This document shows, in pieces, positions 6,907 through 29,148 of a DNA stretch of 64,000 nt (positions are counted from its first letter, which is position 1; every line of letters begins with the position of its first letter). The position numbers and the translations under genes were made by a program. The stretch spans positions 128,001 to 192,000 of the forward strand of contig JBEKDT010000004.1 of assembly GCA_050014195.1 (NCBI GenBank), given 5' to 3'. This stretch comes from Desulfomonilia bacterium. Its GTDB lineage: Bacteria > Desulfobacterota > Desulfomonilia > UBA1062. The notes beneath the pieces were generated by a model. That model saw nothing but the letters and a program-made list of their open reading frames with translations. It did not search any database and had not been told where the DNA came from.

Positions 6907-7003
6907 TCACCTATGGTCGTAAGAAATCGGCATTAAGCAATAGGACCGAATTTATACACCGCACTTTTTACGGCACCACTCAGCCATAAGAGCGAAGATA
7001 GGA

Positions 7004-7052
7004 AGATGGGAGTCAGGTCTTGCTTTTTGACTATTCCGTGTGAATCCGGGGA
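7004..7052. repeat. REP-like motif B, copy 1
   Basis: agatgggagtcaggtcttgctttttgactattccg..atccgggga; direct-repeat copy at 25192-25240. Confidence 0.7.
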
Positions 7053-7075
7053 TAAATTGATAAACATCCCCTTTC

Positions 7076-7360
7076 TTATGCTGCACGGCTCAGGCTGATG
7101 CGCATACCTGCCCTGGTCGCCAGAGTGATGAGCATCTCCAGGCTGAACTTCTCCCACTTGCCCCGGACAAGGTCCGATACCCGGGACTGGCTGATGCCGA
7201 GCATCTGAGCTGCCTGGGCCTGCGTGACCTTCTTCGCCTCTATGAGTGTGCGCAGGTCAGCCATTAGATCGGCACGCATCTTCAATATCGCTGCCTCGTC
7301 CGGGGCGAACCCCAGGTCGGTGAATACATTTCCCGAAGATTTCGTTGAGGTCTTTTTCAT
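7076..7360 (-). CDS. HigA-like XRE HTH antitoxin
   Basis: SSGNVFTDLGF N-terminus, TQAQAAQMLGISQSRVSDL HTH, FSLEML; downstream of a RelE-like toxin. Confidence 0.88.
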   Translation of the reverse strand: MKKTSTKSSGNVFTDLGFAPDEAAILKMRADLMADLRTLIEAKKVTQAQAAQMLGISQSRVSDLVRGKWEKFSLEMLITLATRAGMRISLSRAA

Positions 7361-7363
7361 ATA

Positions 7364-7678
7364 CTACACTCCTATCTGTTTGTATCTCATGCGGGCCAGC
7401 TCTATATCCTTCAGGTTTGTCTTTCTCCCTTTCTTGTGAAACGAGTGCAGAACATAGACAGCATCCGCACGTTTCGCCACGTAGATGATCCGCCATTCTC
7501 CAAGCACATGTATGCGGATCTCCTTCACACCTTTTCCTATTGTCTGCATGGGCTTCCAGTCACTGGGTTCTAAACCACATTGCACGGCGTAGAGCTCAAA
7601 GCCTACAGCCCTACGCACTTCCATGGGAAAATCACGCAGGTTATCAAGGCTTGATCCCATGAACAATAGAGCCTTCAT
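7364..7678 (-). CDS. RelE/HigB-like (Gp49/DUF891) toxin
   Basis: FMGSSLDNLRDFP, WKPMQTIGKGVKEIRI, YVLHSFHKK; toxin-first order typical of higBA. Confidence 0.88.
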   Translation of the reverse strand: MKALLFMGSSLDNLRDFPMEVRRAVGFELYAVQCGLEPSDWKPMQTIGKGVKEIRIHVLGEWRIIYVAKRADAVYVLHSFHKKGRKTNLKDIELARMRYKQIGV

Positions 7679-7882
7679 GGGATTATTATATAAGTTTTTA
7701 TATATCTGGCAACATTAATTTCATACGGACAACCAACCCCCTTATGCCTTGGAGTGGAGAATAATATACTGCTATTTTAGGGATTGACAGACGGAAACAA
7801 ATCTGTCTAAAAATGTGCCTCATGTAGTCTTTGTTATGTTTACCCTCGCAAAACTCTTGCGAGACTGAGGAGGTTGTTTCCA

Positions 7883-10800
7883 ATGAACAACACTTGCCGT
7901 GTCAGGACACGTGTCTATTCGTTTGTTCCCAGGCTGGTGTCGGTCTTGTTCCTCATCTTTCTCTTCCTTGTACCGCTGAGCCCGTCAAAGACGAGTGGAA
8001 AATCTGCTGAAATAACCTGCACCCCTGATCCCCATAACGAGATCGCCACCGACAAGAACCTTCCGCTCGGGTGCGAGATGACCCTGAGCAGTTCTTTTTA
8101 CCACGAGATCCAGGGCAATCCCCTTCTGTATGAATGGTACGGACCGTTCTCTCCGAGCACCATATCGGAGCCGGAAGTGTTCATGCCCGAAGGGACTCAT
8201 GCAGTCTCCCTGCTTACCTTTGACGGCGTGCAACGCTCTGCCCCCCACGTCCTCTACATCACGGTCGATCCGGCATTCTCCATTTCCGCCGCTGCAAAGA
8301 AGGGGAAGGTAGTTGTCACGTGGCCCCATGTGCAGGGGGCCACTCGCTTTGACATCTACCGCGCCAAAGAGAGCGACCCTAGCCGATTCGAAAAGATTGC
8401 AGAGCTCCCGGCAGCAACAACCTCCTATACGAATGTAAACCTATGCGATGCAACCTATCTGTATGCCGTGGGTGCGTTGTCAAACAGGCAGTGGCTGTAT
8501 TCTCAGGTCAAGAGCTCTCATCCGTATTTAACATCCCCGATGTGCAATTACCCGCCTGTCATATACTCCGCACCCATAACCAAGGGCATTGTGGGCCTGA
8601 AATACACCTACGACGTGCAGGGGTCAGATCCCTTGGGGGACATGCTCACCTACAGCCTCTTAAGCCCACCGGCGGGCATGAGGATAAACTCCCAGAGCGG
8701 TCTCATCGAATGGACACCTCCTTCCCTGGGAGACTATGAGGTTACGGTCAAGGTGAAGGACTGCAAGGGCTCATACAAGATACAAAAATTCATCATTGAG
8801 GTGGATGAGCTCCCCGACATCAACAGGAACCCCATTGCCGATGCAGGCGGCCCATATGCCGCAGAGGTGGGCCAGCCGATATCTTTTGACGGCTCTTCAT
8901 CCTATGACCCTGACGGCGATCCCCTCCTGTATGCATGGATCTTCGGAGACGGCTCAAGCGGAAACGGGGCCTCTCCGAGCCATGCATATGGTGCTCCCGG
9001 AACATACCAGGTTACGCTCACGGTCTCTGACGGAAGGGGCGGAACCGCGACCGATGCAACCACAGCAAGCATTCAGCAGTGCCTGCCGCCAACAGTAGGC
9101 TTCTCTTCGAACCCGGCGGCCATACGGCAGGGCGAGTCATGCACCTTGCTCTGGACATCCAAGAATGCCTCCACCCTCAGTATCGACCACGGCATCGGAG
9201 ACGTGGGTGCATCGGGAACCATCACAATACAGCCACAGGCCACTACCACCTACACGATCACCGCAACAGGCCGCTGCGGGACGGCTGCAGAGTCTGTCAC
9301 CGTCATTGTCCATTCTCCGCCTGTTGTTCATTTGACCGCTGTCCCGGGGTCCATTGCGGCAGGGCAGACATCTAAGCTCTCCTGGACATCCGAGAATGCG
9401 GATACGGTAACCATCGACCAGGGCATCGGCCCGGTGACGCCGAACGGCTCTCTCGCCGTAGCTCCCACATCTACCACAACCTACACCATTACTGCTTCCG
9501 GGCCCGGAGGGACTGCAACCGATAGTGCAACAATCACGGTATACCAGCCGCCGCATGTAAGCCTGACCTCCCAACCCCAAGCAATCGCCGAAGGCGGGGC
9601 ATCAATACTCACCTGGACATCCGAGAATGCCGACTCTGCCTTCCTGGATAACGGCCTGGGCAATGTCGCCGTGAACGGATCGCTGGCGGTTTCCCCTGCA
9701 GAGACGACAACCTACGCAATAACGGTCCAGGGTCCCGGAGGCACGGCAACAGCCAGTGCTTCAGTAACCGTGCTTCACAAGCCGGCAGTCATCATTGCGG
9801 CCTCACCCGACACCATCGACGCAGGCGAGACCGCCACCCTGACTTGGACTTCCACCAATGCCGATTCCGCATCCCTTGACCAGGGCATAGGGGCCGTGGA
9901 GGTGAACGGCAGCCTGCAGGTGAGCCCATCCGAGACGACCACCTATACCATCACTGCAACAAGCCCCGGAGGCATTGCAACCGCCTCTGTGCCGGTCGGG
10001 GTCAACCACCCGCAGCTGCAAAGAAAGGCCTGCGCATACATCACGAACATGGAGAGCGGTGATGTCACGGTGGTGGATATCTCCACGAACAGTATCATAA
10101 CCCGTATCCCGGTGGGCACGGCACCCTACGGCGTTGCCGTGAGCCCTGACGGCGACCGGGTATATATCGCATGTGGAGGGAGTGACGGCGGGATATATGT
10201 CATTGATACCATTACCAATACGGTGGCAGGCACCATAGAAGGAATATATGCGACCACCCTGGCAGTGAACCCGGATGGATCGATCATCTATGCCGTGTCA
10301 GCCGTTGACGGGACACTCACGGCTATCGATGCACATTCCCATGGGGTCATCGGGGTCGTTCAGACAGGACCGTCGCCTTTCGGGATAGCTGTAAAACCCG
10401 ATGGAACAAGGATCTACATCACATCCATGGAAGATGGCACCATGAGGGTGATCGATGCTGCAACCTTGGCAGTCATAGACACCGTGCAGATTGTATACAC
10501 GGGGAAGCCCCTCTGGGATGTCGAGGTGAGCCCCGACGGGGCATTTGTGTATGTGGTGTCGAGTGATTCATGCCTCCTCGCCGTCATCGACACGAACACG
10601 GATGCTTTCGTGAACTCACATTTTTACATGCCCGAGAGGCATCTCGGAAGATGTTATCTTGCTGTGAGCCCTGATGGAAACCGCATATACCTGAGCATAA
10701 ACAATAGCACCTATTCCGCAGGATCGGTCTATGTCATTGACACACTCTCCCTTGGTGTTGTGAACAGGATTACCGCAGTATCCCCTTCGGACCTGTCATT

Positions 10801-12712
10801 CACCCCGGACGGAACATTCCTTTATGTGCCCGATAGCGGGGCAAACGGCGTCATGGTCATCGATTCCGGGTCAGACTCAGCGGCTGCTTTCCTGGGAGAC
10901 GATTTCAGCCGCCCCACGACCTGCGGCCATTTCATCACGAAACATAGGGAGCGGATTACCGGCAGGATCGTGGCCGATGGCGCGGGGGTCGAGGGAATCA
11001 TGGTCACGCTCACCGATGGCCGCATGACCTGGAGCTGTCCGACCGATGCACAGGGACGCTACATTTTCTATGCACCGCCCGGCAGCTATACCCTTTTCTT
11101 TTCCGGCAGGGGATATGCATTCGCGCAGCAGAACCTGGCAGTGAATGTCAGCGACAGGGAGATATCCATCACGGATACCGAGGTGCTTCTGGGCGTGAAG
11201 ATATGGTCGGAGCCCGGTTCAATAGCATCCGGACGAACGGCACTCCTGCTCTGGAGCTCGATCAAGGCTTCAAGCATCACCATAGACCAGGGCATCGGCA
11301 GTGTGGGAACGAGCGGTTCTTACGCAATATCTCCAAACGAGACCACGACCTATACGATAACCGCTTTTGACGGCCAGGGCAGGACAGTGACTGACCAGGT
11401 GACGGTGACCGTCTTCCCTCAGCCCCAGGTGAATATCAGTGCGGAGCCGCAGGTAATTTTGAAAGGACAGCCTGCCACCCTGTCATGGACGAGCACCAAT
11501 GCGGATACACTTACCTTGGGGCCATACGGATGGAATCTGGAGAACATCGGCTCTATCACGGTATTCCCTCAGGAGACCACGACCTACACCATTACCGCTT
11601 CAGGTCCGGGCGGGATTGCCACCGCCTCTGCCACTGTGACCGTGTATGAGCCGCCCCAGGTCACTATCTCAGCAAACCCCCAGACCATCTATGCAGGTGA
11701 ATCCTCTCTTCTCACCTGGTCCTCTTCCAATGTAGATCATGTCAGCATCGACAACGGCATCGGCAATGTGGAACCCGGCGGCTCAATGACCGTGAACCCC
11801 GCAAAGACCACGACTTATACCATCACCGCATCAGGCCCGGGCGGGGTCGCCGAGGCTTCAGCCACCCTGACCGTGAACAGCATCATCAGCCTCCACATCG
11901 ATTCCCCGGCAGAGGGAGCCCTCATCGACAGGCCGGACATCCTGGTGAAAGGCACCATGACAAACGTATACGGCAATGAGACCGGGGTGACGGTGAATGG
12001 GGTTCCGGCTGTCATTCATGGGGACAGGTTCTTTGTGAATCATGTGCCGCTCTCTCCAGGAGAGAATTCTCTGATAGTGCGGGCCGCCGATGTTCAAGGG
12101 AATGCTTCCGAAGTCGTTATTCCCCTTGATTGCGAGGTTACAGGGCCTTACATCACCCTGTCCGTCAATGATGCCGCGGGTATTTCACCATTCGAGTCAA
12201 TATTGAGGGTGGAGTCCTTCTTCGAGCCTGACAGCCTTACCTTCTCAGATTCCGGTCCCGGACAGATCGAGTATCTTGACGGATCGGATACGAATGAACG
12301 GCTCATAAAAATCCCAAATGCCGGAGTCTATTTCATTACGGCAAGGGTTTATAAAACCGGGGTGCTCTATACAGATACAATAGGGACTGTTGTACATGAC
12401 CGGACAGAACTTGATGGGATGCTCAGGCAGAAGTGGGCAGGCATGCGCACTGCCCTCCTGAATAATGATATTGATACGGCAGTGAAAGACATATCAAGCA
12501 GGACAAAAAATATATACCGGAATGCATTTGGCTATCTCACCGACAGCCAAAGAAGCAGCCTGGTGAATGAAATTGGTGACATCCGGCTCATCAAGATGAG
12601 AGGCACCGGAGTGGAATATGACATCCAGACAACAAGGGATGGTACCCTTTACTCATACATTCTTCTCTTCGATCTGGACGAAGACGGGATGTGGAAGGTC
12701 GCAAACTTTTGA
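7883..12712 (+). CDS. Large secreted multidomain surface protein (FN3/Ig-like, PKD, 7 Ig-like repeats, YVTN beta-propeller)
   Basis: ATG 7883 after GAGGAGG; hydrophobic N-terminus; PKD motif ADAGGPY..FDGSSSYDPDGDPLLYAWIFGDG; seven ~77-aa repeats W.S.NA..ID.GIG.V...GS..P..TTTYTITA; AYITN / AVSPDG propeller blades. Confidence 0.85.
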   Translation: MNNTCRVRTRVYSFVPRLVSVLFLIFLFLVPLSPSKTSGKSAEITCTPDPHNEIATDKNLPLGCEMTLSSSFYHEIQGNPLLYEWYGPFSPSTISEPEVFMPEGTHAVSLLTFDGVQRSAPHVLYITVDPAFSISAAAKKGKVVVTWPHVQGATRFDIYRAKESDPSRFEKIAELPAATTSYTNVNLCDATYLYAVGALSNRQWLYSQVKSSHPYLTSPMCNYPPVIYSAPITKGIVGLKYTYDVQGSDPLGDMLTYSLLSPPAGMRINSQSGLIEWTPPSLGDYEVTVKVKDCKGSYKIQKFIIEVDELPDINRNPIADAGGPYAAEVGQPISFDGSSSYDPDGDPLLYAWIFGDGSSGNGASPSHAYGAPGTYQVTLTVSDGRGGTATDATTASIQQCLPPTVGFSSNPAAIRQGESCTLLWTSKNASTLSIDHGIGDVGASGTITIQPQATTTYTITATGRCGTAAESVTVIVHSPPVVHLTAVPGSIAAGQTSKLSWTSENADTVTIDQGIGPVTPNGSLAVAPTSTTTYTITASGPGGTATDSATITVYQPPHVSLTSQPQAIAEGGASILTWTSENADSAFLDNGLGNVAVNGSLAVSPAETTTYAITVQGPGGTATASASVTVLHKPAVIIAASPDTIDAGETATLTWTSTNADSASLDQGIGAVEVNGSLQVSPSETTTYTITATSPGGIATASVPVGVNHPQLQRKACAYITNMESGDVTVVDISTNSIITRIPVGTAPYGVAVSPDGDRVYIACGGSDGGIYVIDTITNTVAGTIEGIYATTLAVNPDGSIIYAVSAVDGTLTAIDAHSHGVIGVVQTGPSPFGIAVKPDGTRIYITSMEDGTMRVIDAATLAVIDTVQIVYTGKPLWDVEVSPDGAFVYVVSSDSCLLAVIDTNTDAFVNSHFYMPERHLGRCYLAVSPDGNRIYLSINNSTYSAGSVYVIDTLSLGVVNRITAVSPSDLSFTPDGTFLYVPDSGANGVMVIDSGSDSAAAFLGDDFSRPTTCGHFITKHRERITGRIVADGAGVEGIMVTLTDGRMTWSCPTDAQGRYIFYAPPGSYTLFFSGRGYAFAQQNLAVNVSDREISITDTEVLLGVKIWSEPGSIASGRTALLLWSSIKASSITIDQGIGSVGTSGSYAISPNETTTYTITAFDGQGRTVTDQVTVTVFPQPQVNISAEPQVILKGQPATLSWTSTNADTLTLGPYGWNLENIGSITVFPQETTTYTITASGPGGIATASATVTVYEPPQVTISANPQTIYAGESSLLTWSSSNVDHVSIDNGIGNVEPGGSMTVNPAKTTTYTITASGPGGVAEASATLTVNSIISLHIDSPAEGALIDRPDILVKGTMTNVYGNETGVTVNGVPAVIHGDRFFVNHVPLSPGENSLIVRAADVQGNASEVVIPLDCEVTGPYITLSVNDAAGISPFESILRVESFFEPDSLTFSDSGPGQIEYLDGSDTNERLIKIPNAGVYFITARVYKTGVLYTDTIGTVVHDRTELDGMLRQKWAGMRTALLNNDIDTAVKDISSRTKNIYRNAFGYLTDSQRSSLVNEIGDIRLIKMRGTGVEYDIQTTRDGTLYSYILLFDLDEDGMWKVANF

Positions 12713-12797
12713 ACTATCCCGTTGCGATTGAACATCTGCTAAGGGGTTGTGATGGTATCATTACAGGTACTACAGGGCTTGTTTTGAAAAAGGGGGA

Positions 12798-13547
12798 ATG
12801 GGAATGCTGACAAAAAAGGCATGTCTGATACTGACCATGGCGATGCTTCCTCTCGGTCTTATGGGTGCAGACCTGTTCGGGAATGTGACATTCAGGGGCA
12901 AGGTGATCGATGCAGACACCCTCAAACCCATCGAAGGGGCGGTGGTAGTGGCCGAGTGGGAGAAATGCCACCCAGGGATAGGTGAAGGCTCATTATGTGA
13001 TTTCAAGATGGTTAAAGAGACACTGACAAATGCTTCTGGTGAGTGGAGCATCACAGGGCCACAAGGTGATAGTTTACCTAGTAAGACTCGGGAGATTCTC
13101 GGGTTCATCGTATCATGGACAGCACCGCCTCGTTTTCAGATCTACAAACAAGGGTACTGCAGACTTCACCAGAAACCAGGCGGATTACATGCATATCCAT
13201 ATGTAAATAAAGAAAAGAGGTTGGAAGGGATCGTATTGGTCCGCATGGGTGATACGAAAGAAGAGGAAAATGAATTTATGAAACAATATCTTCTAGAAGG
13301 TTTCGTTCCTTTTATTCCAGTTAAGGATCCGGAGAGGAAGCTTCGGGAGCTGAATTTCGACTTTCGATACCCTCCTGATGTTATGAGTATAAGGGATGTT
13401 TGGGAAAACACTATGTATGATGTAATCGGTTTAAAGAAGGCAGTGACACAAGAAGAAAAGAAGGAAGCGGAAATATTGCCTGCCACTGTAGATCATTGGA
13501 TTTATCTGCCTCTGTTAAGGAAGACAGTTGAAAATAGTATGAAATGA
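12798..13547 (+). CDS. Exported protein with carboxypeptidase-regulatory-like N-terminal domain
   Basis: Signal-like N-terminus, then FRGKVIDADTLKPIEGAVVVAEW. Confidence 0.7.
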   Translation: MGMLTKKACLILTMAMLPLGLMGADLFGNVTFRGKVIDADTLKPIEGAVVVAEWEKCHPGIGEGSLCDFKMVKETLTNASGEWSITGPQGDSLPSKTREILGFIVSWTAPPRFQIYKQGYCRLHQKPGGLHAYPYVNKEKRLEGIVLVRMGDTKEEENEFMKQYLLEGFVPFIPVKDPERKLRELNFDFRYPPDVMSIRDVWENTMYDVIGLKKAVTQEEKKEAEILPATVDHWIYLPLLRKTVENSMK

Positions 13548-13572
13548 TTGCTGAAGAGGAGGTCTTGGTGAA

Positions 13573-15741
13573 ATGAAGAGGATATGGTTAATTGTATTCT
13601 GTGGGGTCAGTCTTCTCAACCTTGTTGTAATGCATATGGACTGCTTTTGTTACAATGTGAATGATCATGGGGAAATGTGTAATTTTGTATCAGATAACAC
13701 TGTTGATGGTTTTTCTTTTGACCAATACCTGAAACACAATCTCGGTTTTGACCTCGGCAAGGATCAGTATTTCACTGAAGCCCCGATCATGGCACTATTC
13801 TGGTTCGGCATCTTTGCAAAGGAACCGGTTAATGCAAAAGAGTGTCTTGCCCAGGGAGCGAGAGACGAAGACTCTCCAGTCATTCGTTGCAAAAACCATT
13901 TTCACGACCCCTCAATGACTTGGGATCTAGCTGGGTTAAATAGGGGTGAAGGCTTAGAGGGTGGTAAGTCATCGATACTCTGGGCACAGCTTGGGCAGGG
14001 AACACAGGATTATGGTGCGTATAGCTGGCATGATGCACGGCAATACTTTTACAAAGCGCTTACCACAACAGATCCTAATGAGAAAGGCATGAACCTTATG
14101 ATGACGTTTCAGGCAGTCGGTCACCTCATGCACCTGATTCAGGATGCCTCAGTGCCGGAACATGTGAGAGATAATTCTCATATCACAGGATATAATTACG
14201 AAAAATATGTGTCAGTATATTGCAATCCAAAATCTGATAAATACAATACCTTTCTGAATTGGCTAAACGATAATACAGGATACACCTTCAACGACTCTGC
14301 CTTCAATCTGCCGAGCAACAGCGAAGCCCCGATCCCCATTGCGCGGATCGTGGATACAGACAGATATGGCGGCACGAACCCCTCCATCACCATGGAGCAG
14401 CCCATCGGCATCTCGGAATATACAAATGCAAACTATTTCAGCAAGGACACGATCTTCACATTAGATAAATATCCTTTCCCCAATTGGGGAAGCGTGGATA
14501 CCGGTGCAGTGCTCATCCAGAACCCGAGGAATTCATCCGGAGAAATACACAGGCAATATCTTCTTAAAGTGCAGGACGGAGATTCAGGTTATCGCCTCTG
14601 CACGGCACCTCTGCTTGCCGGTCAGGTCCCTGACACGGCCGAGTATCTGGCCCCCATGCTGGATGACTCCGTATATGGAGACTATGCCGCGCGGCTGGTT
14701 CCCCGGGCCGTGTCTTATTCGGCCGGGCTGCTCAAGTATTTTTTCAGGGGTACCCTTGAGATCTCGCTGCCAGCGAGCGGTGTGTATGCATTCACTTCAA
14801 CTGAACCTGCAGACCCGAGGTCAAAGGGGTTCAACAAGGTGTCCCTGATGGTAAAAAACTCTTCGAGCTCAGGTGAGCCGATGAACGCAGGGGGGATCGA
14901 ACTGGTGGTCCAGTACCGGTTCCTGACGAACGACCAGAATGCCGATGACCCTCGTTCGGCGGCACTGGACCCCTTTGTCATGTACCCGGCATCGAACCTG
15001 CCTGCCCTCAGCAAACCCATATACCTTGTGAAGGCCTTGGATTCGAATAAAGATCATCGCATAACCACTGACCCGCAATTGCTTGAATTCAACCTCGATA
15101 ACGACGAGATCCCGCTCTGGGCAATAGATGTAAGACTGTATGTCGTGTACAAGGGCAAGCTCGGTACGACCGGCAGCGGGGGATATGAGGAAGATTCCGC
15201 GGTATGCGTAGGATACAAGAATATCAATGAACCTACTTCATTGGATATCATCAATGACACAGATACGGTCTGTAAAAATGATGAATGGTGTGAAGCATCC
15301 GATGTCGAGAATGTTAAACCCAAATATATTACGAGCTTCTATCTTCGATTCTCACCGGAAGCCCAACCCCAGGATGCATCCCCTGCAGAGGGAGAACATA
15401 TTTATGCGCTCAGCAATATTAACCCCGGGAAATACAAGAGAGTCTATCTGCTGAGCGATAATACGTACAGCGAGAGTGTCCATTATTCTTATCACTTTGC
15501 CGGAGAAAGCGATATGTATGAGGGTTCAAGCACCTATCAGAGGACAGCCATCAAGAATGGGATATATCGCGATGACATCAATGATACGGTGATAAGATAT
15601 TACCCCATATTCGATGATTTCAGAAATATTACTTATTGGAACATGTTCTACTTCCTCAATTTCGACATATGTACTTTGAGCTCATGCCCGGAAGGTTGTG
15701 ATAATGCCGATAATCCCTTTGATCTTGAATTGATGTTATAA
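13573..15741 (+). CDS. Secreted protein with Zn-dependent phospholipase C / P1-nuclease-like N-terminal domain
   Basis: Signal peptide, then YNVNDH, EDS, NHFHDP, GHLMHLIQDASVPEH, YEKY, matching the Zn-ligand spacing of the PLC/P1 fold; the C-terminal ~330 aa are unassigned. Confidence 0.65.
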   Translation: MKRIWLIVFCGVSLLNLVVMHMDCFCYNVNDHGEMCNFVSDNTVDGFSFDQYLKHNLGFDLGKDQYFTEAPIMALFWFGIFAKEPVNAKECLAQGARDEDSPVIRCKNHFHDPSMTWDLAGLNRGEGLEGGKSSILWAQLGQGTQDYGAYSWHDARQYFYKALTTTDPNEKGMNLMMTFQAVGHLMHLIQDASVPEHVRDNSHITGYNYEKYVSVYCNPKSDKYNTFLNWLNDNTGYTFNDSAFNLPSNSEAPIPIARIVDTDRYGGTNPSITMEQPIGISEYTNANYFSKDTIFTLDKYPFPNWGSVDTGAVLIQNPRNSSGEIHRQYLLKVQDGDSGYRLCTAPLLAGQVPDTAEYLAPMLDDSVYGDYAARLVPRAVSYSAGLLKYFFRGTLEISLPASGVYAFTSTEPADPRSKGFNKVSLMVKNSSSSGEPMNAGGIELVVQYRFLTNDQNADDPRSAALDPFVMYPASNLPALSKPIYLVKALDSNKDHRITTDPQLLEFNLDNDEIPLWAIDVRLYVVYKGKLGTTGSGGYEEDSAVCVGYKNINEPTSLDIINDTDTVCKNDEWCEASDVENVKPKYITSFYLRFSPEAQPQDASPAEGEHIYALSNINPGKYKRVYLLSDNTYSESVHYSYHFAGESDMYEGSSTYQRTAIKNGIYRDDINDTVIRYYPIFDDFRNITYWNMFYFLNFDICTLSSCPEGCDNADNPFDLELML

Positions 15742-15803: not shown

Positions 15804-15913
15804 CCGGTTGCTCTCAATGAGTCTCAGGCCTGACAACAGACACATCCCCACATGGAATGAAAAGTGGGGGTAGTATAACATGGATGGCTCGTTTCGTGGG
15901 TGAGGAAATGTGG
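15804..15913 (-). repeat. Relic copy of recC 5' end and upstream promoter region
   Basis: 15804-15841 is identical to 6770-6807; similarity continues to 15913 (= 6880). Confidence 0.92.
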
Positions 15914-16018: not shown

Positions 16019-16228
16019 ATGAGAATATATACAGCGGTAATTGAAAAATGTAGCGATACAGGATTGTATGTCGGATACGTACCTGGTTTCGCCGGTGCCC
16101 ACTCTCAGGCTGAAAGTCTCGATGAGCTCAAGGACAATCTAAAGGAGGTCATCGAGATGTTGTTGGAAGAAGGAGAACCCGACCTTGAGGCCGAGTTTGT
16201 TGGAACCCAGACAATTCAAGTTGCCTGA
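16019..16228 (+). CDS. hicB: HicB-family antitoxin (short form)
   Basis: YTAVIEK..GLYVGYVPGFAGAHSQAESLDEL..NLKEVIEM. Confidence 0.9.
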   Translation: MRIYTAVIEKCSDTGLYVGYVPGFAGAHSQAESLDELKDNLKEVIEMLLEEGEPDLEAEFVGTQTIQVA

Positions 16229-16230
16229 TC

Positions 16231-16464
16231 ATGGTGAAGCCACCCATATTAAAACCCAAAGAGGTGGTGATTCTTCTTGAAAAAAAAGGTTTTACCGAAG
16301 TCCGCCAGAGAGGTTCACATAAACAATACCGCCACCCGGACGGCAGATACACAACTGTCCCCTTCCACCCCGGCCGTGATATTTCTCCTATACTGCTGAA
16401 ACAGATCGCCAAGGACATTGGGCTAACTGTCGAAGAATTGGTATCCTCCTCAGATTCGAAATAA
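16231..16464 (+). CDS. hicA: HicA-family mRNA interferase toxin
   Basis: GFTEVRQRGSHKQYRHPDGRYTTVPFH motif. Confidence 0.92.
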   Translation: MVKPPILKPKEVVILLEKKGFTEVRQRGSHKQYRHPDGRYTTVPFHPGRDISPILLKQIAKDIGLTVEELVSSSDSK

Positions 16465-16491: not shown

Positions 16492-16516
16492 GAATTAGGT
16501 ATTGTGTCCCCGGAAT
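16492..16516. repeat. REP-like motif E (inverted partner of 24493-24517)
   Basis: gaattaggtattgtgtccccggaat; its reverse complement matches 24493-24517 at 24/25 nt. Confidence 0.8.
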
Positions 16517-16739: not shown

Positions 16740-17378
16740 ATGAAGAAATTTGATCCATTTGATTTTCCAGAGGAACAGATACCAAAACATTCTAAGGTTG
16801 TTAATGTGGTATGTTTTTTTGATGTAGTTGAATTTACAAAAGAGACTACTAATAAAGATATGCAAAATATCATAAGGAAAATTGAAGAAGATATGTCGGA
16901 TTTACTTTATAATGGTTTTAACTGGAATGAAAAAGGAAGAGATAAGTACGACGAGCCTATTCACAATGATCTTATTCTAATCCCAACTGGCGATGGTTAC
17001 GGTATAGGATTCAACCCCGGCCTCGACGATAAAAGAATATTAGATACAATAACTAGTATATATAAGCAGTTGCTCGCGGATAATGGTTTGAAAATCCGGA
17101 TGGGTGTAGCTAAGGGGCCCAATGTAAGACATATAGACAAGAACGATGTTGTTAATCTCTTCGGATATGGTATAAATTTAGCGGCCAGAGTTATAAATGT
17201 GGCAAAACCAAATCAAATTCTTTTACACTCTGTTTATGCTGAAGAACTTGGCCAGGCTACAAAGATGTCTGATCTATGCAAGATTGAAAAGCCTATGCCT
17301 AGCAAACACGGAGAAAGCATTATCGTCTATAATTATTATAGAAGTGGCGAGTTTGGCATCCCACATCCCAAACAATAA
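16740..17378 (+). CDS. Stand-alone class III adenylate/guanylate cyclase-like protein
   Basis: FFDVVEFT and PTGDG metal-binding aspartates, IRMGVAKGP, GYGINLAARV (N..R transition-state residues); GAGGAGG RBS; AT-rich. Confidence 0.82.
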   Translation: MKKFDPFDFPEEQIPKHSKVVNVVCFFDVVEFTKETTNKDMQNIIRKIEEDMSDLLYNGFNWNEKGRDKYDEPIHNDLILIPTGDGYGIGFNPGLDDKRILDTITSIYKQLLADNGLKIRMGVAKGPNVRHIDKNDVVNLFGYGINLAARVINVAKPNQILLHSVYAEELGQATKMSDLCKIEKPMPSKHGESIIVYNYYRSGEFGIPHPKQ

Positions 17379-17400
17379 TTAATAAATAACAATAAAAAAT

Positions 17401-18474
17401 ATGGAATACTATCTCTTTGTAACACATGCATGCAATATGAGATGCGCTTATTGCTCATCTCAAAGAGTATTATCTTCAAATAGCAATTCATTGTTAACCG
17501 ATGAAAAGGTAGATCAAGTTCTGGAATACATAAAAGAGAATCAAAATGGAGTTGAAGATACACTTGTTTTCTTTGGTGGTGAGCCATTATTAGAACATCA
17601 TTTGATCGAAGATATTATGAATAAGAGCAAAAACTTAAAACTAAAATATATGCTCTATTCTAATGGTTTATTAATTAACAAAGTTCCTCTTGCCCTTTTA
17701 AACTCACTCGACGCCATTTTTATATCTCTAGACGGAGATAAAACCGCGCATGATAAATATAGAGGGTTGGGAACATATGATAAGATAATTGATAACCTTA
17801 AGTACCTAAAAGCAAATGATGTTTCTTTTACAATTGGAAGGATCACTGTTGAAGAAGAGACAAATCTTTATGAATCTGTCACAAACATCTTACCACATGT
17901 CAATTCAGTATTTTGGCAAATCGTTAATAAACCAAATTTTACCAATCCAACCAAATTTATTAAAAATTATAAAGATGAACTAAATATTCTTTTTAAATAT
18001 TGGTTAGATAATTTTAGTAAAGGCAATTTAATTAATATAATCCCCTTCTTAGCCGTTGTTGATTATTTGGCATTTAACAACCGTAGGAGCCATTCATTTA
18101 GATGTGGGGCGGGTAGTAATTTTCAGGCAATTGATATTGATGGTAAAATATATTGGTGTGATGAGTATGTTGGTGATCCAGCTGGCGTAATAGGCAATAT
18201 TAAAAACCATAAAAATAACAATCATTACATATGCCACAGGGATATCTTTGAGAATTGCAAAACTTGTGATTTGGGGGATATTTGTTTGGGTAGATGTAGA
18301 AAATGTCTAACTGACTATAAAGCCGAGCACGTAGCAATGTATTGCGAGTTAACAAAGCATCTTATTAATTTAATTAAAGATAATTTAACAGAAGTTAATC
18401 AAATAATTACTAATTATAATTATAACAGCAATACTTTTTACAATATTACTCATTGCACGGAAGAAATTCCTTAA
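17401..18474 (+). CDS. Radical SAM/SPASM protein (AF0577-family-like)
   Basis: CNMRCAYC, FFGGEPLL, ISLDG, SPASM cysteines CGAG..C..CKTC..C.GRC, C-terminal EEIP; very AT-rich. Confidence 0.85.
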   Translation: MEYYLFVTHACNMRCAYCSSQRVLSSNSNSLLTDEKVDQVLEYIKENQNGVEDTLVFFGGEPLLEHHLIEDIMNKSKNLKLKYMLYSNGLLINKVPLALLNSLDAIFISLDGDKTAHDKYRGLGTYDKIIDNLKYLKANDVSFTIGRITVEEETNLYESVTNILPHVNSVFWQIVNKPNFTNPTKFIKNYKDELNILFKYWLDNFSKGNLINIIPFLAVVDYLAFNNRRSHSFRCGAGSNFQAIDIDGKIYWCDEYVGDPAGVIGNIKNHKNNNHYICHRDIFENCKTCDLGDICLGRCRKCLTDYKAEHVAMYCELTKHLINLIKDNLTEVNQIITNYNYNSNTFYNITHCTEEIP

Positions 18475-18603: not shown

Positions 18604-18749
18604 CGGCTCTGCACTACAATGACCTCGGGGGTGAGCGGCGAGGAGAGCTGCTCGGACAAGGACGCAGCAAGTGCCTGTGAAAGTACCTCGAGCCGGTTGC
18701 TCTCAATGAGTCTCAGGCCTGGCAACAGACGCCTCCGTGCATGGAATTA
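18604..18749 (-). pseudogene. Diverged recC 5' fragment (41 codons + RBS)
   Basis: 134/146 nt identical to 6681-6826; reads MPGLRLIESNRLEVLSQALAASLSEQLSSPLTPEVIVVQSR, then runs into palindrome C. Confidence 0.93.
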
Positions 18750-19625
18750 CTTTTGCCAGAACCTTTTTATGATTATCTGCCGGGCATAATCTGCAGATTT
18801 TGGTTTGGCAGGGAACAGGCCCAAGACATTTGTTGGGACACCCTCAGGAAATCTATTAAGAATACAAGCGCCACTGGTACCACACCTCTCAAGCACATTT
18901 GTCCAGACACCCTTGGGTGACATTCGCAATGGTTCAACCCATTTTAATGAAGCGCTTTGCCAATTACTCTTGAACTGGGGATCCCATAAATTATTGTCTT
19001 CGAATAACAATTGTCCAGTCTTGGGATTCACAAATGCAAACTTCGAAGTACCATGTGTTGATGAGTGATAAACCCCGAGAACCGCAACTACACAAATGTT
19101 GTTGTTAGTAAAACTTAAATCACTGAGGATCTTATAAGCATATATCTGGTAGTCGAAAAGCTCCTCAGGTTTACCTGTAAGTAAGGAGAACTCATTTCGA
19201 TTAGTACCCTTAAATGACAATTCGAAAATAAATGGTTGATTAGGATCTTTGGTTAGGATGTCTAGTGATACAACCCCTTTACCTATTTCAATACCATTTG
19301 TCTGAATCAAGATAGGGACTTTGTATGGCTGATATGCTTCACTTAAACCGTTTAGAACATCAATTAAGCTCGACCACTGGAGTGTAGGTTCACCGCCAGT
19401 GAAACGGATGAAAGCCTTACCTTTGTCGTATAGAATACTTCGTGTCCCATCTATTATTTCTTTTGAAGATAATACATGCGAAGGATCATCTGTCTCCATT
19501 GGCCTAGATGCTGGACTCCAGCAAAAGTGGCAACTGAGATTACATCCCGAAAAATCCCACCGGATTTCCTGATACTCTCCATAGAAGAAACTTCCGGGTG
19601 AGTACTTCTTTCTTATCCTGAGCAT
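18747..19625 (-). CDS. Radical SAM protein (COG5014-like, no SPASM)
   Basis: FYG....GCNLSCHFCWS, RFTGGEPTL, IQTNGI; last gene of the MTase-HerA-NurA operon. Confidence 0.8.
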   Translation of the reverse strand: MLRIRKKYSPGSFFYGEYQEIRWDFSGCNLSCHFCWSPASRPMETDDPSHVLSSKEIIDGTRSILYDKGKAFIRFTGGEPTLQWSSLIDVLNGLSEAYQPYKVPILIQTNGIEIGKGVVSLDILTKDPNQPFIFELSFKGTNRNEFSLLTGKPEELFDYQIYAYKILSDLSFTNNNICVVAVLGVYHSSTHGTSKFAFVNPKTGQLLFEDNNLWDPQFKSNWQSASLKWVEPLRMSPKGVWTNVLERCGTSGACILNRFPEGVPTNVLGLFPAKPKSADYARQIIIKRFWQK

Positions 19626-19736
19626 CCTTTGGATACCTCTTTTTAAAAAGTACTTTATTGTATGGTTAAGGTCTCATTTACTATTTCAGTAGATTCTCTT
19701 TGGCAAAGGTTTGTAAAATTTTTTGGCTAGGAAAAT

Positions 19737-21029
19737 CTAAACTGATACCAACTTGTTTGCTAGAGCAACTGGAATAAGAGAGTTATCATACATGTTACAC
19801 CTGAGTTCAGCGATTAGAGAGAGGATCTCCTCCAAGTGTGGTATGTCTGCTGATCTTGGTTCTGCAAGATAAGAGGTTGCAGGAACAGTTAAAACGTGCA
19901 TTTCTCCACCAGAAGCTCGGTAAAATATTTTCTGGCCGTAATAGGTGTTCTGGCCATAAGATACCCCAGCTTCACCCGGTATGATATACTTACGAATATA
20001 TGAGTCTCCAACTATGAAATATGATCCCTGTTCCATACAATCCTGGATAGCTGCTGCATGCTCGACGAATGCGCCGCTCTTTTCAAGACCTGCTAAACGA
20101 ACTGTTGGACCAGTAGGTCCTCCAGGCTGGCTTAGCAAGTGTGAAATAAGCTCTCTCATAGGTTTGTAAAGGGGCGCCACTAGACCGAAAAAGGCGAGAG
20201 GACCATCTTTGATGAAGAGTATGTTTCGCATTAGGCTTGGCTTGAGGTGTTCAAGAATGTCATGGAATAGATGTACTAAGATGAGCTGCTCAAGCATTGT
20301 CATTAAATAAGAAATTATTCCACCTGCTCCGAGTTCTTCGTCAATGCGCTCATGTAATCTAAAAGTGTCTGTCAGGTATATTGGTTGATTGCATCCAGGG
20401 CATTTTTTATTAGTTGGATCACCATACTTAAAAGTAATATTGTCATGACCACAATTGTATGGGCAGTGAGCTATTGTTTCTTCATAGTTATTGTCTTGTT
20501 TACGCATCCAGCGACGGAAGAGAAACCATTGAAGACTGTCGATAAGCTTTTCACCTTCACCATGTTCCTTAATAAAAAAATCATATATGGTTCGCCGGAT
20601 TGTTGCAGACAGGGACGTTTGATCTTTATGACGAATACCCTTTGTTGGTATAACAAGTGAGTAGCGCTCTATCTTCTTTAGCCGTGCTAGATCTTCTGGG
20701 GCAATAAACCTTTTGCAATCAAGGGATCGTAGGTCTGAAAGCTCAAATAGTAATGGACCGAATGTAAAGAATGTAATCGAAGCTGAAGGATACTCTTCAC
20801 GCACAAAGGTTTCAGTAAAACCACCATCAATTGCAATTACTGCTGAGACTTCAGAAGTATCTACATTGTCAAGAATGGTCAGATAAGGCTCTAAAAACAG
20901 AGAGTCAGGTGCTGAAGGAATGATGCATTGATCAATATAAGCCTGAACATTAGGATTCTTGATTATTTCAACATGAGCGATCTTACTTGCTCGTTCAATT
21001 GGTTTACGGCCCTTTGATGAATATCCCAC
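19737..21029 (-). CDS. nurA: NurA-family nuclease (C-terminus probably frameshifted)
   Basis: AIDGG, IKDGPL, GLEKSG, IPVALANKLVS motifs; CPYNC/CPGC Zn ribbon; directly downstream of HerA. Confidence 0.8.
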   Translation of the reverse strand: MGYSSKGRKPIERASKIAHVEIIKNPNVQAYIDQCIIPSAPDSLFLEPYLTILDNVDTSEVSAVIAIDGGFTETFVREEYPSASITFFTFGPLLFELSDLRSLDCKRFIAPEDLARLKKIERYSLVIPTKGIRHKDQTSLSATIRRTIYDFFIKEHGEGEKLIDSLQWFLFRRWMRKQDNNYEETIAHCPYNCGHDNITFKYGDPTNKKCPGCNQPIYLTDTFRLHERIDEELGAGGIISYLMTMLEQLILVHLFHDILEHLKPSLMRNILFIKDGPLAFFGLVAPLYKPMRELISHLLSQPGGPTGPTVRLAGLEKSGAFVEHAAAIQDCMEQGSYFIVGDSYIRKYIIPGEAGVSYGQNTYYGQKIFYRASGGEMHVLTVPATSYLAEPRSADIPHLEEILSLIAELRCNMYDNSLIPVALANKLVSV

Positions 21030-21031
21030 CT

Positions 21032-22960
21032 TTATTGCCCCTTCAACACTGTGAATCGATCAATTTGAACAGGTACAATGAAGGCATTGGAATATGTCTT
21101 CATACGAATAAAGCCTTTGTCTGTTGTTCTTCGTAAGCTATCAACAAAGTCTTCATAATCGTAATACTTGGCTATCTCTCTTAATTCATCTCTGTTGTTT
21201 AGGTGTGAGACAAACCAGTTCTGGGTGTTCTTTAGCACGTTGGCCGAAATAGAACTTACCTCTTGCGTTGCATAGATCAATCCCAACCTGAGTTTAGCAC
21301 CTTCCTTTGCAATCCTGTTGTATATCAATGTTAAGTCAGCCTCATTCTTTTTAGGAAACAGGTTATGTGCTTCTTCGAAGTACATCTGAATGAAGTTAGC
21401 TGGTTCGTTGTTGATGAATCTTTTCATAGCATCACTGAAGATAGCTCCACATAGGCGATCAGAATACGTTCTCTGAATTTTAGGATCACCTTGCGACAGA
21501 TCAATAATTACAACCTTCCCTTCACGTAATAAATCAACTACCTCCTCTTCATAAGACTTCTGGAGTGTTGAGGTGTGAAGGTTGCGGATAGGTATTAGTT
21601 TTCGAAATCCAGCCTCACTTGCTTGATGTCCAGGAGAAGGTTTTCTTGTAAGGAACCTCATCAAGCTCTGCAAGTCATCATCAGCCCATTCGTGATTGTG
21701 ACTCGTTCGATAATTGCTGAAATATTGGTCGGTATTGTAATTATCCCAAACCCAGGTAAACCAACGTATAGTCTCGTCAACAGTAAGACCATCTTTCGGA
21801 TTCAATCCAACAGCATTGTTGATATGCTCCGTTCCAACAAATTTAATCTTATGTTTTTGAGGAATAGTGAAACCAGCATTGCCAAGTATAGCTTGGTAGC
21901 AGGCTTTACGCCTTCCATACCTTGTTGTTGCACTTACATCCTGTGAATCAGGTTCCTCCCAATTAACATTCAGGAAGGCTTGGGTATAAATTGCCCTGTC
22001 ATCTTGTAGGTTGGCCCTGATCATCTCAAAGCCTTCAAGAAGCTGCTTATAGAAATTGAGCTTCATTACTTTAAAGCCTGGTTTCTCGAGTATGCTGTAT
22101 CTAGTTACATCATCTTTGTAGAGGTTATAAATGGCGGTACCTTCATCTTGCTGATTGTCATTTGCGTACTCACCATTAACATCAAAGATGATCTGACCTA
22201 TCGGCCCAACTGTTTCTGTATCTAACATTTTCTCTAATGTAGTGATTTCAGCTGTGGCCTTGATTACCATCTTCACTGTATTGGATTTACCAGTACGTGT
22301 CATTCCAAATAGAGCTGTTCGTTTTCCTAGGTAGTCAAGTGCAGAAACATAAACTGGCACTGATGGTCCCTGGGTATGACGCTGACTAGATGCATATCGT
22401 ACCTCACCAATCCTCTGATCACCTGGTCCGCCTGGTAAACCAGCACCTTCTCTGAAGTTTACAATATATTCAAGCACTTTCCCAACTGGCTTATAGATCG
22501 AGTAGTTATTCGGACCATAAAAATTATCTACATCTGCACCAAAGCATGTCTTGCCGTCAGATATACGGTAGAAAGATCCTAGAACACGACATTCAAGGCC
22601 TGAAAACTGGAACTCATACCTAGTGTAGCTATCAAGTTGATTAATCGAAGATTCACTCTCTGCACGTTCTTTGTAGTGATCGACCATGGCAGCTACAACA
22701 TCTGAGTCAGAAGGAAGTGTTGTTGGGCCTAATACACGTAGAAGAATCAGTTCAGGATTCTCCTTATCATTATCAAATATGGCTGTGAGAAAAGAACCTG
22801 CCGGAATACCCCCAATCTTCTCTTTCCAATAATCATTTGATAGCACCTTCATTGTGTTAAAGTCGAAGTAAAAGGGGCGGCCAACAAAAGCCTCAGGCTT
22901 GGCTACATCATTGAATAAATCAACAGTTGCAAGCTCCTTTAGTCTTTCCTGAAGTGACAT
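21032..22960 (-). CDS. herA: HerA/FtsK-family ATPase (DUF87)
   Basis: Walker A GMTRTGKS, IIFDVNGEY, Walker B YFEEAH, RIAKEGAK, ATQ. Confidence 0.88.
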   Translation of the reverse strand: MSLQERLKELATVDLFNDVAKPEAFVGRPFYFDFNTMKVLSNDYWKEKIGGIPAGSFLTAIFDNDKENPELILLRVLGPTTLPSDSDVVAAMVDHYKERAESESSINQLDSYTRYEFQFSGLECRVLGSFYRISDGKTCFGADVDNFYGPNNYSIYKPVGKVLEYIVNFREGAGLPGGPGDQRIGEVRYASSQRHTQGPSVPVYVSALDYLGKRTALFGMTRTGKSNTVKMVIKATAEITTLEKMLDTETVGPIGQIIFDVNGEYANDNQQDEGTAIYNLYKDDVTRYSILEKPGFKVMKLNFYKQLLEGFEMIRANLQDDRAIYTQAFLNVNWEEPDSQDVSATTRYGRRKACYQAILGNAGFTIPQKHKIKFVGTEHINNAVGLNPKDGLTVDETIRWFTWVWDNYNTDQYFSNYRTSHNHEWADDDLQSLMRFLTRKPSPGHQASEAGFRKLIPIRNLHTSTLQKSYEEEVVDLLREGKVVIIDLSQGDPKIQRTYSDRLCGAIFSDAMKRFINNEPANFIQMYFEEAHNLFPKKNEADLTLIYNRIAKEGAKLRLGLIYATQEVSSISANVLKNTQNWFVSHLNNRDELREIAKYYDYEDFVDSLRRTTDKGFIRMKTYSNAFIVPVQIDRFTVLKGQ

Positions 22961-22975
22961 ATACTTTCATACCTC

Positions 22976-24211
22976 CTATGCCCAGTTCTTCGAGGATGAC
23001 CATTCAATCGGATTTAACCTAGGCAACTTTTTTTTGTTTGTTTTCTGGTGACCCAGGATAAGAATTCTATCAGTCTTTGTGGCCTGTCCACGGGTGTGCT
23101 TCCAGATACGGCTTACCTTATGCTCAGATGGTACTTCATCAACTATAACTGCAATACGATGCCAATCAAGCTTGGATGCAATTTCAGCCCAGACACACTC
23201 AGCAAGATTGGTAATTTTACCAGTACTCTTCTCCATGACATCACCAAAGATTAGACAGAGATATCCATCATCTCGTACGGCCTCCTTAAGTTGCTCTAGA
23301 ACTACATTCATGAATGCAAGGTATTTTCTAAGAGAACTTGTTGAGATAAGCTTTTGATCTACATTCTTAGAATCCTGCTTAAGCATCCATAAGCGTATCC
23401 AATTATATTTTCCATAACGTATAACACTTAAATATGGGGGTGAAGTGAAGACCAGCTTAGCTGGATTATTCCGAAGATCTTTTGGAAAAGGATCTCTCAC
23501 ATCTTGTCTCCAGGCATGTCCTCGTGTCCCATCTTCATTTGGTAAGTGCATCCTAGCCAACTTCGATTCCATTAAATCAAAGACATCAATATAAGGTGGA
23601 ATCAGTCCATTGTCTTTGATGTATCGACGTACGTATCCTGGTGCCATTGAGAATGTGTTTGGCATACTAATCGAAAGACCTCTTGCTGGTCTTCCTGGCT
23701 TATAATTCGCATGCATGATTCCAAGCAGTAGAGCCAATAAGAAACGATCAGTACGATCAGTGCTATTAAGCGAATCACGTAACCATAAGAGTTGCCCAAG
23801 AACAATTGGGTGATAAAGCATTTGGATGTCATCTGGAGCCTCTGCGGGGTTACCAGGGCAACATGCCTTACGGAGTATATGAATTCGGTCAAGAGCCTCT
23901 TTTTGAGAAGGTGGGTTTACCTTTGCACCAGTTAATATGTAAGCTAATGGGTTTGCATCAGAACCAAAGCCAATGCGCCCTAGACGGCATGCCTCCATGG
24001 GGGTTGTACCTCTACCTGAGAATGGATCATAAACGATATCCCCTGCATCAGTCAGCCAGCGGATGAAAACATGTGGAATATGTGGCGGGAACATAGCAAA
24101 ATAAGAGCAAAGAGAGTGCAAGGGATGGCCCCAGCGTCTTGGTGCTATATGCCACTGTTGATTAATATGGCTGGTACATACTTTTAAACTTCGGGCGTAA
24201 TTCTCAGACAA
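22976..24211 (-). CDS. DNA amino-methyltransferase (N4-C/N6-A)
   Basis: Motif I DPFSGRGTT near the N-terminus and catalytic TSPPY later (alpha order); TTG start with GGAGG RBS. Confidence 0.88.
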   Translation of the reverse strand: MSENYARSLKVCTSHINQQWHIAPRRWGHPLHSLCSYFAMFPPHIPHVFIRWLTDAGDIVYDPFSGRGTTPMEACRLGRIGFGSDANPLAYILTGAKVNPPSQKEALDRIHILRKACCPGNPAEAPDDIQMLYHPIVLGQLLWLRDSLNSTDRTDRFLLALLLGIMHANYKPGRPARGLSISMPNTFSMAPGYVRRYIKDNGLIPPYIDVFDLMESKLARMHLPNEDGTRGHAWRQDVRDPFPKDLRNNPAKLVFTSPPYLSVIRYGKYNWIRLWMLKQDSKNVDQKLISTSSLRKYLAFMNVVLEQLKEAVRDDGYLCLIFGDVMEKSTGKITNLAECVWAEIASKLDWHRIAVIVDEVPSEHKVSRIWKHTRGQATKTDRILILGHQKTNKKKLPRLNPIEWSSSKNWA

Positions 24212-24374: not shown

Positions 24375-24444
24375 GAGAAATTGGGGACGGGTTCACATTA
24401 AACTTACCCAACTTTTGAAATATGAACCCGTCCTCGATTTCTCT
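24375..24444. repeat. ~68-nt hairpin element D (REPIN/MITE-like), copy 1
   Basis: Arms gaaattggggacgggttca / tgaacccgtcctcgatttc; inverted copy with conserved loop at 26324-26392, partial copy at 29098-29148. Confidence 0.88.
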
Positions 24445-24652: not shown

Positions 24653-24940
24653 ATGATCAGTTTCTCCTGGGACCACCGGAAGAGTGTTGCCAACAGACAG
24701 AAGCATGGTGTGTCCTTTGAAGAAGCCAAGACAGTGTTCTACGACGAGCATGCTGTCAGATACTATGACCCGGATCATTCAGGGGATGAAGACCGGTTCA
24801 TCATGCTGGGGCTCAGCTTGCACTTGCGGACTTTGGTGGTGCACCACAGTTATAGACAGGACAATTCGGTCATCAGGATCATATCGGCAAGGAAGGCCAC
24901 CGCATCGGAGGAAGAAGCCTACTGGAAGGAGCGACCATGA
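24653..24940 (+). CDS. brnT: BrnT-family toxin
   Basis: FSWD..K...N.QKHGVSFEEA, IRIISARKAT. Confidence 0.93.
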   Translation: MISFSWDHRKSVANRQKHGVSFEEAKTVFYDEHAVRYYDPDHSGDEDRFIMLGLSLHLRTLVVHHSYRQDNSVIRIISARKATASEEEAYWKERP

Positions 24941-25167
24941 GAAAAGAATACGATTTCAGCAAAATGAAAGCCCAGAAGAACCCGTACATCAAGGATTTGA
25001 AGACCCAGATAACCATACGCCTCGATAGAGAAACGGTGGAGTATTTCAAGGCGCTGGCCAAGAAAACCGGCATGTCCTACCAGAACCTGATAAACCTATA
25101 CCTGAGGGAATGCGCCCAGGCAAAGATGGAGCCCACCATCAAGTTTCACACCTCAGCGGGGTCATGA
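24937..25167 (+). CDS. brnA: BrnA-family antitoxin
   Basis: MRKEYDFS, ITIRLD..VEYFK, YQNLINLYL; ATGA overlap with brnT. Confidence 0.9.
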   Translation: MRKEYDFSKMKAQKNPYIKDLKTQITIRLDRETVEYFKALAKKTGMSYQNLINLYLRECAQAKMEPTIKFHTSAGS

Positions 25168-26110: not shown

Positions 26111-26323
26111 GCAGACAACCTCCCCCACCAGAAAATGCCTGTGCCGATCAATGTACTTACATCTGTAACAGAGTATATGCATTTTATAAACGAACAAAAA
26201 GAGGACCGATTTATTTTCCAGCTTTCCTGGGTCGTCCTCGGCCACGCAATTCTATCCTGATCCTCAGACGGGATTCACCTTCATCAATGAATTTTCTCGG
26301 ACAAATCAATTGACCTCCATCGC

Positions 26324-26392
26324 AGAAATCGGGAACGGGTTCATATTTCAAAAGTTTGGGGTAAGTCTTAATGTGAACCCGTCCCCGATTCC
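26324..26392. repeat. Hairpin element D, copy 2
   Basis: Reverse complement aligns with 24377-24442, including the loop. Confidence 0.88.
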
Positions 26393-29097: not shown

Positions 29098-29148
29098 AGA
29101 AATCGGGGATGGGTTCATATTTCAAAAGTTTGGTGTAAATTCTTAATG
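29098..29148. repeat. Hairpin element D, truncated copy 3
   Basis: Matches 26324-26373; right arm missing, runs directly into the GGAGG RBS of the next gene. Confidence 0.8.

Follow-up and report, generated by a model that had tools for sequence, protein, structure and literature searches.

What does a compact run of genes low in guanine and cytosine (GC) do in the genome of a Desulfomonilia bacterium, and which of these genes act together? The stretch of DNA analysed here (64,000 nucleotides of contig JBEKDT010000004.1, hereafter the window) carries four co-oriented genes encoding a DNA methyltransferase (MTase), a HerA-type ATPase, a NurA-type nuclease and a radical S-adenosylmethionine (SAM) protein, which an earlier interpretation from the sequence alone (the sequence-only reading) took for a candidate undescribed, restriction-like defence system of four genes. 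The observations support a conserved, co-evolving module of three genes, MTase-HerA-NurA, in mobile, defence-type settings. The module belongs with TdpAB and TdtA-NurA, as their methylase-linked variant in a distinct large clade marked by an EGAK motif in HerA and a putative zinc (Zn) ribbon in NurA. The fourth gene we read as a mobile, stand-alone gene that landed downstream, not as a conserved part of the module.

The genes and their products

The cluster consists of the following features (ORF, open reading frame; aa, amino acids).

24211-22976, minus strand: MTase ORF, 411 aa, start codon TTG preceded by GGAGG, intact
22960-21032, minus strand: HerA ORF, 642 aa
21029-19737, minus strand: NurA ORF, 430 aa, frameshifted
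19681-19736, minus strand: remainder of the nurA C-terminus, out of frame, a conserved segment in another frame
19625-18747, minus strand: radical SAM ORF, 292 aa, intact

The genes are separated by gaps of 15, 2 and 111 nucleotides (nt), and their GC content is 41-43% (33-39% at third codon positions) compared with 51-63% (56-82%) in seven flanking host genes. ORFs and base composition alike bear out the compact, low-GC arrangement described before.

The MTase is an amino-methyltransferase of family PF01555 that matches the PADLOC model PDLC03325 over its full length (E = 1e-38). Motif I (DPFSGRGT, residues 62-69) precedes motif IV (TSPPY, residues 256-260), which is the alpha-type order; DPFxGxGT and TSPPY are invariant in 31 aligned MTase sequences, and the central region is strongly conserved. 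Motif order together with SPPY assigns such enzymes to the alpha-type N4-methylcytosine (m4C) class, and judging by its SPPY motif the protein is probably an alpha-type m4C enzyme.

The HerA protein belongs to the DUF87 family and has intact Walker A (GMTRTGKS) and Walker B (YFEEAH) motifs. Its best match in the PDB is TdpA, both as a single sequence (E = 3e-16) and as a profile (E = 2.5e-21, mainly over the ATPase core, the next match being a HerA at 1.4e-12). Hidden Markov models (HMMs) of repair-type HerA give 30-31 bits against cut-offs of 800-970, and those of the antiphage Sir2-HerA and DUF4297-HerA proteins 38-47 bits, where the cut-offs are 800-850. Where TdpA has EGRK, the 7 clade members examined all carry EGAK or EAAK, at a position that we take to be that of the arginine finger. 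In this clade another residue may act in trans in place of this arginine; the motif can serve as a signature and is mechanistically odd.

The NurA ORF has no match in Pfam, NCBIfam or PADLOC, and sequence searches against the PDB gave nothing significant. Its assignment as NurA holds up by fold and family: the predicted model (predicted local distance difference test, pLDDT, 74.5) matches NurA-fold, RNase H-like chains, and 13 of 89 distant homologs match PF09376. The best structural match is TdpB (chain 8wfd_G: Z 17.7, root-mean-square deviation (rmsd) 4.9 Å, 294 residues aligned); TdpB chains reach Z 17.7 and 16.2, compared with 8-11.7 for repair-type NurA chains. The window protein retains both catalytic residues, D68 and D275; all 108 aligned sequences have D68, and 105 have the second DG aspartate. 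The four cysteines of an insert, the putative Zn ribbon, are kept in 90-94 of the 108, and at the position of the motif III histidine (as defined in PMC13748450) 61 sequences have Asn and 42 His. Clustering of this large family gives at least 1970 clusters at 90% and 896 representatives at 50% identity. PADLOC 2.0 contains no NurA-like model, and 3 of the 89 family members gave stray weak matches to unrelated models.

A frameshift near codon 430 of nurA drops the last ~19 conserved residues. The conserved segment resumes in another frame and ends with a stop codon at 19681, which leaves 55 nt to the start of the radical SAM gene. Of 107 aligned homologs, 106 run past the end of the window protein by 10 residues or more, and one leucine in the lost segment is kept in 103 of 108 sequences. 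The suspected frameshift and the distance of about 55 nt after its repair are confirmed. Inspection by eye found no slippery heptamer for a programmed frameshift at the break. The 430-aa form is a cluster representative that occurs on 12 contigs, and a real mutation is therefore more likely than a read error, although one population, assembled repeatedly, may account for all 12. By its sequence the window copy is probably damaged, with its catalytic positions surviving, and this truncation probably weakens or inactivates the module in the Desulfomonilia genome.

HerA and NurA folds, and the DG catalytic motifs, are shared with the archaeal and Deinococcus HerA-NurA pairs, of which D. radiodurans HerA is proposed to thread onto DNA from broken ends (PMC9960219) and the Thermococcus complex is reported to degrade both strands (PMC12977600). 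We give very little credence to the corresponding explanation, an accessory complex for the resection of double-strand breaks. The archaeal and Deinococcus chains stay below TdpB in structural Z, the HerA scores lie far under the repair-HerA cut-offs, and the window pair is MTase-linked and sits in a low-GC, mobile location. No mre11 or rad50 was recognised beside HerA-NurA in the 7 loci inspected. The host also has RecBC, as the sequence-only reading stated in calling a repair role redundant: recB (TIGR00609, above cut-off) and recC (TIGR01450) occupy positions 3-6802.

Conservation of the trio and the place of the radical SAM gene

The HerA-NurA pair of this clade is found on five plasmids. 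A Deferribacter plasmid carries MTase-HerA-NurA in the same order as the window (MTase identity 37%), with HerA split by an insertion sequence (IS) element, and a haloarchaeal Halorarius plasmid carries HerA-NurA-MTase, a different order (MTase identity 34%). Two Vibrio phage records carry a NurA of this family, and in Nostoc an AbiTii gene adjoins a HerA-NurA locus. Together with the toxin-antitoxin pairs at both edges of the window island, these plasmid and prophage locations make up the mobile, defence-like settings of the module.

As a proxy for co-location, we matched the size of the longest contig between NurA and MTase homologs (the best 120 of 1970 NurA and the best 120 of 4405 MTase matches), leaving aside the proteins of the window itself and a single fragment of its NurA. 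Among the homologs listed, 30 of 118 NurA share a longest-contig size with one of 119 MTase, where 0.8 are expected (jitter null: mean 0.8, maximum 6 in 5000); on contigs of at least 8 kb the proportion is 21 of 54. Missed pairs are to be expected, because only these best matches were compared. Distances within the 30 pairs and the window correlate (Spearman 0.72, reached in 0 of 5000 permutations); this demonstrates that the genes descended together, but not that they are functionally coupled. One pair is labelled Myxococcota independently on both sides. In a quick tree, with its root untested, the MTase-linked NurA sequences sit in three branches.

We also note two neighbourhoods that touch these families. 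In one of the two Vibrio records, a prophage locus (L086, 1309-5751), the integrase is directly followed by a split HerA and NurA, with Shedu- and Gabija-labelled genes further on. On rhizobial plasmids (L090, 3598-10324; L095, 4971-10321), distant MTase homologs face a gene for a 1,400-aa AAA-domain protein, possibly another MTase-linked module, and in L090 an annotated anti-phage dGTPase adjoins the MTase homolog.

The radical SAM protein has a CxxxCxxC motif at residues 28-35 and a confidently predicted model (pLDDT 96.3). Its fold is closest to the pyruvate formate-lyase (PFL) activating enzyme (Z 17.4, rmsd 3.3 Å, 222 residues aligned), followed by QueE (Z 13.8) and viperin (Z 13.7). A viperin was ruled out, as NF038283 scores 26.7 bits where 180 are required and the fold is nearer the PFL-activating enzyme. 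The family is small, with 77 matches among 769 candidates of 160-511 aa as compared with at least 1970 NurA matches, and both the JGI labels of its homologs and the Atlas clusters are consistent with a group of radical SAM proteins that is rich in archaea and uncharacterised. Five of the 77 (P0016, P0020, P0021, P0022 and P0024) carry a GreA/GreB domain (PF01272) fused at the C-terminus.

Several features of the window are those expected if all four genes formed one system in which the radical SAM protein adds a modification or effector step. The gene is co-oriented with the trio, has the same GC content and its own ribosome-binding site, and no terminator-like site lies between it and the natural nurA end 55 nt away; it is probably co-transcribed with the trio here. 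The GreA/GreB fusions also speak for such a step. We consider a four-gene system very improbable all the same. The GTDB genome scan, which used the radical SAM protein and not the trio as query, returned 80 loci, 4 of them with orthologs (the 76 distant ones, E above 1e-8, were left out). Trio genes are absent from 4 of 4 ortholog loci, two of which are seen with 10 kb on both sides and two with about 1.3 kb upstream. No radical SAM homolog occurs in the plasmid and phage records, including the 7 with HerA-NurA. Among the listed homologs, 0 of 76 share a longest-contig size with the 118 NurA or 119 MTase homologs, 30 of the 76 being on contigs of at least 4.5 kb. Within this sample the radical SAM gene thus never co-occurs with the trio, the outcome that the sequence-only reading had itself named as refuting its proposal. 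Of the conservation of neighbourhood that it called for, the three-gene set recurs on plasmids and co-varies, but the four-gene set was found at none of the loci compared.

The ortholog loci themselves look mobile. In L006 the ortholog directly follows an 81-nt attC-like hairpin (9891-9971, -16.8 kcal/mol) within an integron-like array (5774-11785) that contains an integrase fragment (TIGR02249, E = 5e-38), attC-like sites, and MazEF and AbrB genes; this ortholog is an integron-type gene cassette. In L008 it lies amid resolvase, SRAP and IS genes. The attC candidate in L009 has matching ends and does not fold. The copies in L006 and L009 are broken, the former by an internal stop. No attC sites were found around the radical SAM gene of the window. 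By itself this gene may still act in defence.

Likeness to known systems and a possible mechanism

TdpABC is listed as a phosphorothioate-based antiviral restriction-modification system in a table of PMC13223576, and PMC12914056 presents it as a phosphorothioate-based antiviral system with one modification gene. The likeness of the window trio to TdpABC (PDB 8wet, 8wfd, 8y1k; An et al. 2025) consists in a HerA translocase, a NurA-fold nuclease and one modification gene, with TdpA and TdpB being the top PDB matches of the window HerA and NurA. There are clear differences. The modifier of TdpABC is TdpC, whereas the four ORFs of the window include no TdpC and instead the PF01555 amino-methyltransferase. 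TdpA has EGRK where the window HerA has EGAK. The window NurA is about 75 aa longer than TdpB and contains the four-cysteine insert, and the similarity between the two is remote (structural identity 11%; E = 0.16 with an 89-sequence NurA profile, not significant). TdpAB, which is said to come from Thermus antranikianii, reportedly degrades phosphorothioate-free phage DNA.

The second relative is the tdt operon of ICETh1 in Thermus thermophilus HB27, which comprises a type IIG enzyme (TthHB27I/Tth111II), nurA, tdtA and TTC1880, a 410-aa PF01555 methylase (PMC5365140). It combines the same three domain types (NurA-like, HerA-like and PF01555 methylase) in a low-GC mobile region, a likeness at the domain level only; plasmid searches gave no Thermus match. 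The best TdtA homologs include one of T. antranikianii (figure legend in PMC5365140). As far as domain content goes, the three-domain architecture is therefore already in print under another function. The claim that the system is undescribed stands in part: literature searches turned up no named MTase-HerA-NurA defence system, a statement subject to the TdpABC paper, Iyer et al. 2004 and supplements, which may describe such variants, but the ICETh1 operon is published and so is TdpABC, a HerA/NurA defence gated by a modification. The available parts of PMC10853773, PMC12839542, PMC10910872, PMC7251087, PMC12948488, PMC4158269 and PMC3506569 contain nothing on this module.

Could the window trio then be a machine for DNA donation, pumping chromosomal fragments to competent neighbours in a transjugation-type process? 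In ICETh1 the gaps are tight as well, the methylase is nearly identical in length (410 versus 411 aa), and donation is lost in tdtA and in nurA mutants (PMC5365140). We consider this function quite improbable for the window. ICETh1 has a type IIG enzyme, which efficient donation requires, an integrase and tRNA att sites, and its gene order differs (PMC5365140), whereas no type IIG restriction enzyme or integrase was recognised among the ORFs of the island at 15.7-25.2 kb and a tRNA scan of the window found none. The proteins also differ in size from those of Thermus (HerA 642 versus 568 aa; NurA about 449 aa in its natural length versus 377).

On balance, we favour, without strong conviction, a horizontally acquired defence against incoming DNA that would resemble TdpABC and use base methylation as the self mark. 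This much of the restriction-like defence proposed at the outset survives for the trio, a conserved mobile module that is structurally closest to TdpAB, but not for its radical SAM part. From the observed folds, motifs, linkage, co-variation and mobile settings we infer the modified base, the gating by the mark and the anti-phage activity as follows. The MTase, whose class is given by its motifs, would methylate a host site, probably to m4C. A HerA hexamer with a NurA dimer would thread onto free DNA ends, by analogy with other HerA-NurA complexes, and pump the duplex into the nuclease, so that unmethylated linear phage or transferred DNA would be degraded in both strands. Where host DNA is broken, methylated sites would, by analogy with TdpAB, brake or halt the motor. 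The radical SAM gene would be an independent mobile gene outside this mechanism. Since an intact circular chromosome would be spared, end-loading would explain how a cell can tolerate the nuclease without its methylase, and would reconcile the MTase-less copies and the Thermus knockout with this mechanism.

A number of observations weigh against methylation-gated defence. Three of the five plasmid loci, all cyanobacterial, consist of an XRE helix-turn-helix (HTH) gene, HerA and NurA, and no MTase homolog is found on these plasmids; the sole methylase of the Vibrio prophage locus is a convergent Dam-like gene. With the best 120 of 4405 MTase matches compared, 88 of the 118 listed NurA homologs match no MTase homolog in contig size, and 9 more distant MTase homologs (identity at most 31%) have no HerA or NurA of the clade within about 5 kb. 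No methylation-reading domain was identified in the module, and the sequence match to TdpB is not significant. In Thermus, tdtA and nurA mutants lose DNA donation and the operon is assigned to donation (PMC5365140); its available parts contain no defence test, and their strain table includes a TTC1880::kat methylase knockout. According to a later paper, transfer is affected in a minor way when the methylase is lost (PMC7767461). The MTase-less cyanobacterial copies and the ICETh1 knockout argue against a strict dependence of the restriction-modification type. The cyanobacterial sequences form one branch of the quick tree, which fits loss of the MTase.

The MTase-less copies and the Thermus knockout equally support a methylation-independent HerA-NurA defence. 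HerA and NurA alone would then be the anti-phage unit, acting by free-end degradation or abortive infection, with the MTase travelling along, for example against host restriction. Sir2-HerA (Nezha) and DUF4297-HerA, in which HerA likewise serves anti-phage defence, function without a methylase. Both are listed as two-gene systems (PMC12948488), yet their partners differ from the NurA-fold nuclease and MTase of the window and their HMM matches are weak. We consider this explanation unlikely: one MTase family is tightly linked to the nuclease and co-varies with it across bacteria and a haloarchaeon and in two gene orders, and its central region is strongly conserved.

The surrounding island and the meaning of the module

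The low-GC stretch around the cluster spans about 15.7-24.7 kb of the window and is accompanied by the following features.

24653-25167, plus strand: BrnT/BrnA toxin-antitoxin pair, right edge of the island
16019-16464, plus strand: HicA toxin (16231-16464), closely preceded by a 69-aa ORF, at the left edge of the island
18604-18749, no strand: host intergenic repeat of 146 nt that abuts the radical SAM stop codon, with copies elsewhere in the window

The 69-aa ORF has no match in NCBIfam and is a probable HicB by position. The 146-nt repeat, for which Rfam gives no match, recurs with 92% identity at 6681-6826 and in part at 15804-15858; because of these further copies it is not an att site of the island. 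A 55-nt direct repeat (15804 and 18693) was likewise ruled out as attL/attR, given the longer copy at 6681-6826. Other short palindromic repeats lie at 24375-24443, 26316-26390, 29098-29134 and 16492-16516. Promoter and terminator scans are close to shuffled levels (35 versus 26.3, standard deviation 5.8; 7 versus 7.7) and show nothing at the operon start. A scan with Rfam and a DNA search of E. coli genomes each gave 0 matches.

On the plus strand, window positions 16740-18474 carry two genes 22 nt apart, the first resembling class III nucleotide cyclases (PF00211, E = 5e-6) and the second a radical SAM/SPASM gene, which is TIGR04084/AF0577-like (190 bits, cut-off 225). At 36% and 31% their GC content is the lowest in the window; the cyclase-like gene has no plasmid match, and the two are possibly a signalling or defence pair. 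Further upstream (7874-15741, plus strand), a gene for a 1612-aa repeat-rich protein, probably a surface protein, is followed by low-GC genes of 249 and 722 aa with no Pfam match above cut-off. Abundant genes for acyl-CoA enzymes nearby suggest that the host is an anaerobic degrader of fatty acids.

Defence inventories built on the PADLOC 2.0 library miss this NurA family of at least 1970 clusters. The window copy, with its truncated nurA, is for that reason a poor subject for testing the module. A bolder idea, which we hold to be less likely than not, is that one end-loading HerA-NurA family works with two chemically different self marks: TdpABC would use sulfur in the DNA backbone, the module described here methylated bases. 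The methylated form would be a widespread restriction system that PADLOC does not see, and its motor, not a sequence-specific endonuclease, would distinguish self from foreign DNA. Transjugation in Thermus could then be a by-product of a defence module of this type that shreds and exports DNA, and MTase-less copies could use the orphan methylation of their hosts. If this is true, the defence reading extends to the ICETh1 donation operon, and a puzzle arises as to how a motor that grips the backbone senses a methylated base. Gating by methylation would then show, by comparison with TdpAB, an end-resection machine becoming a restriction system.

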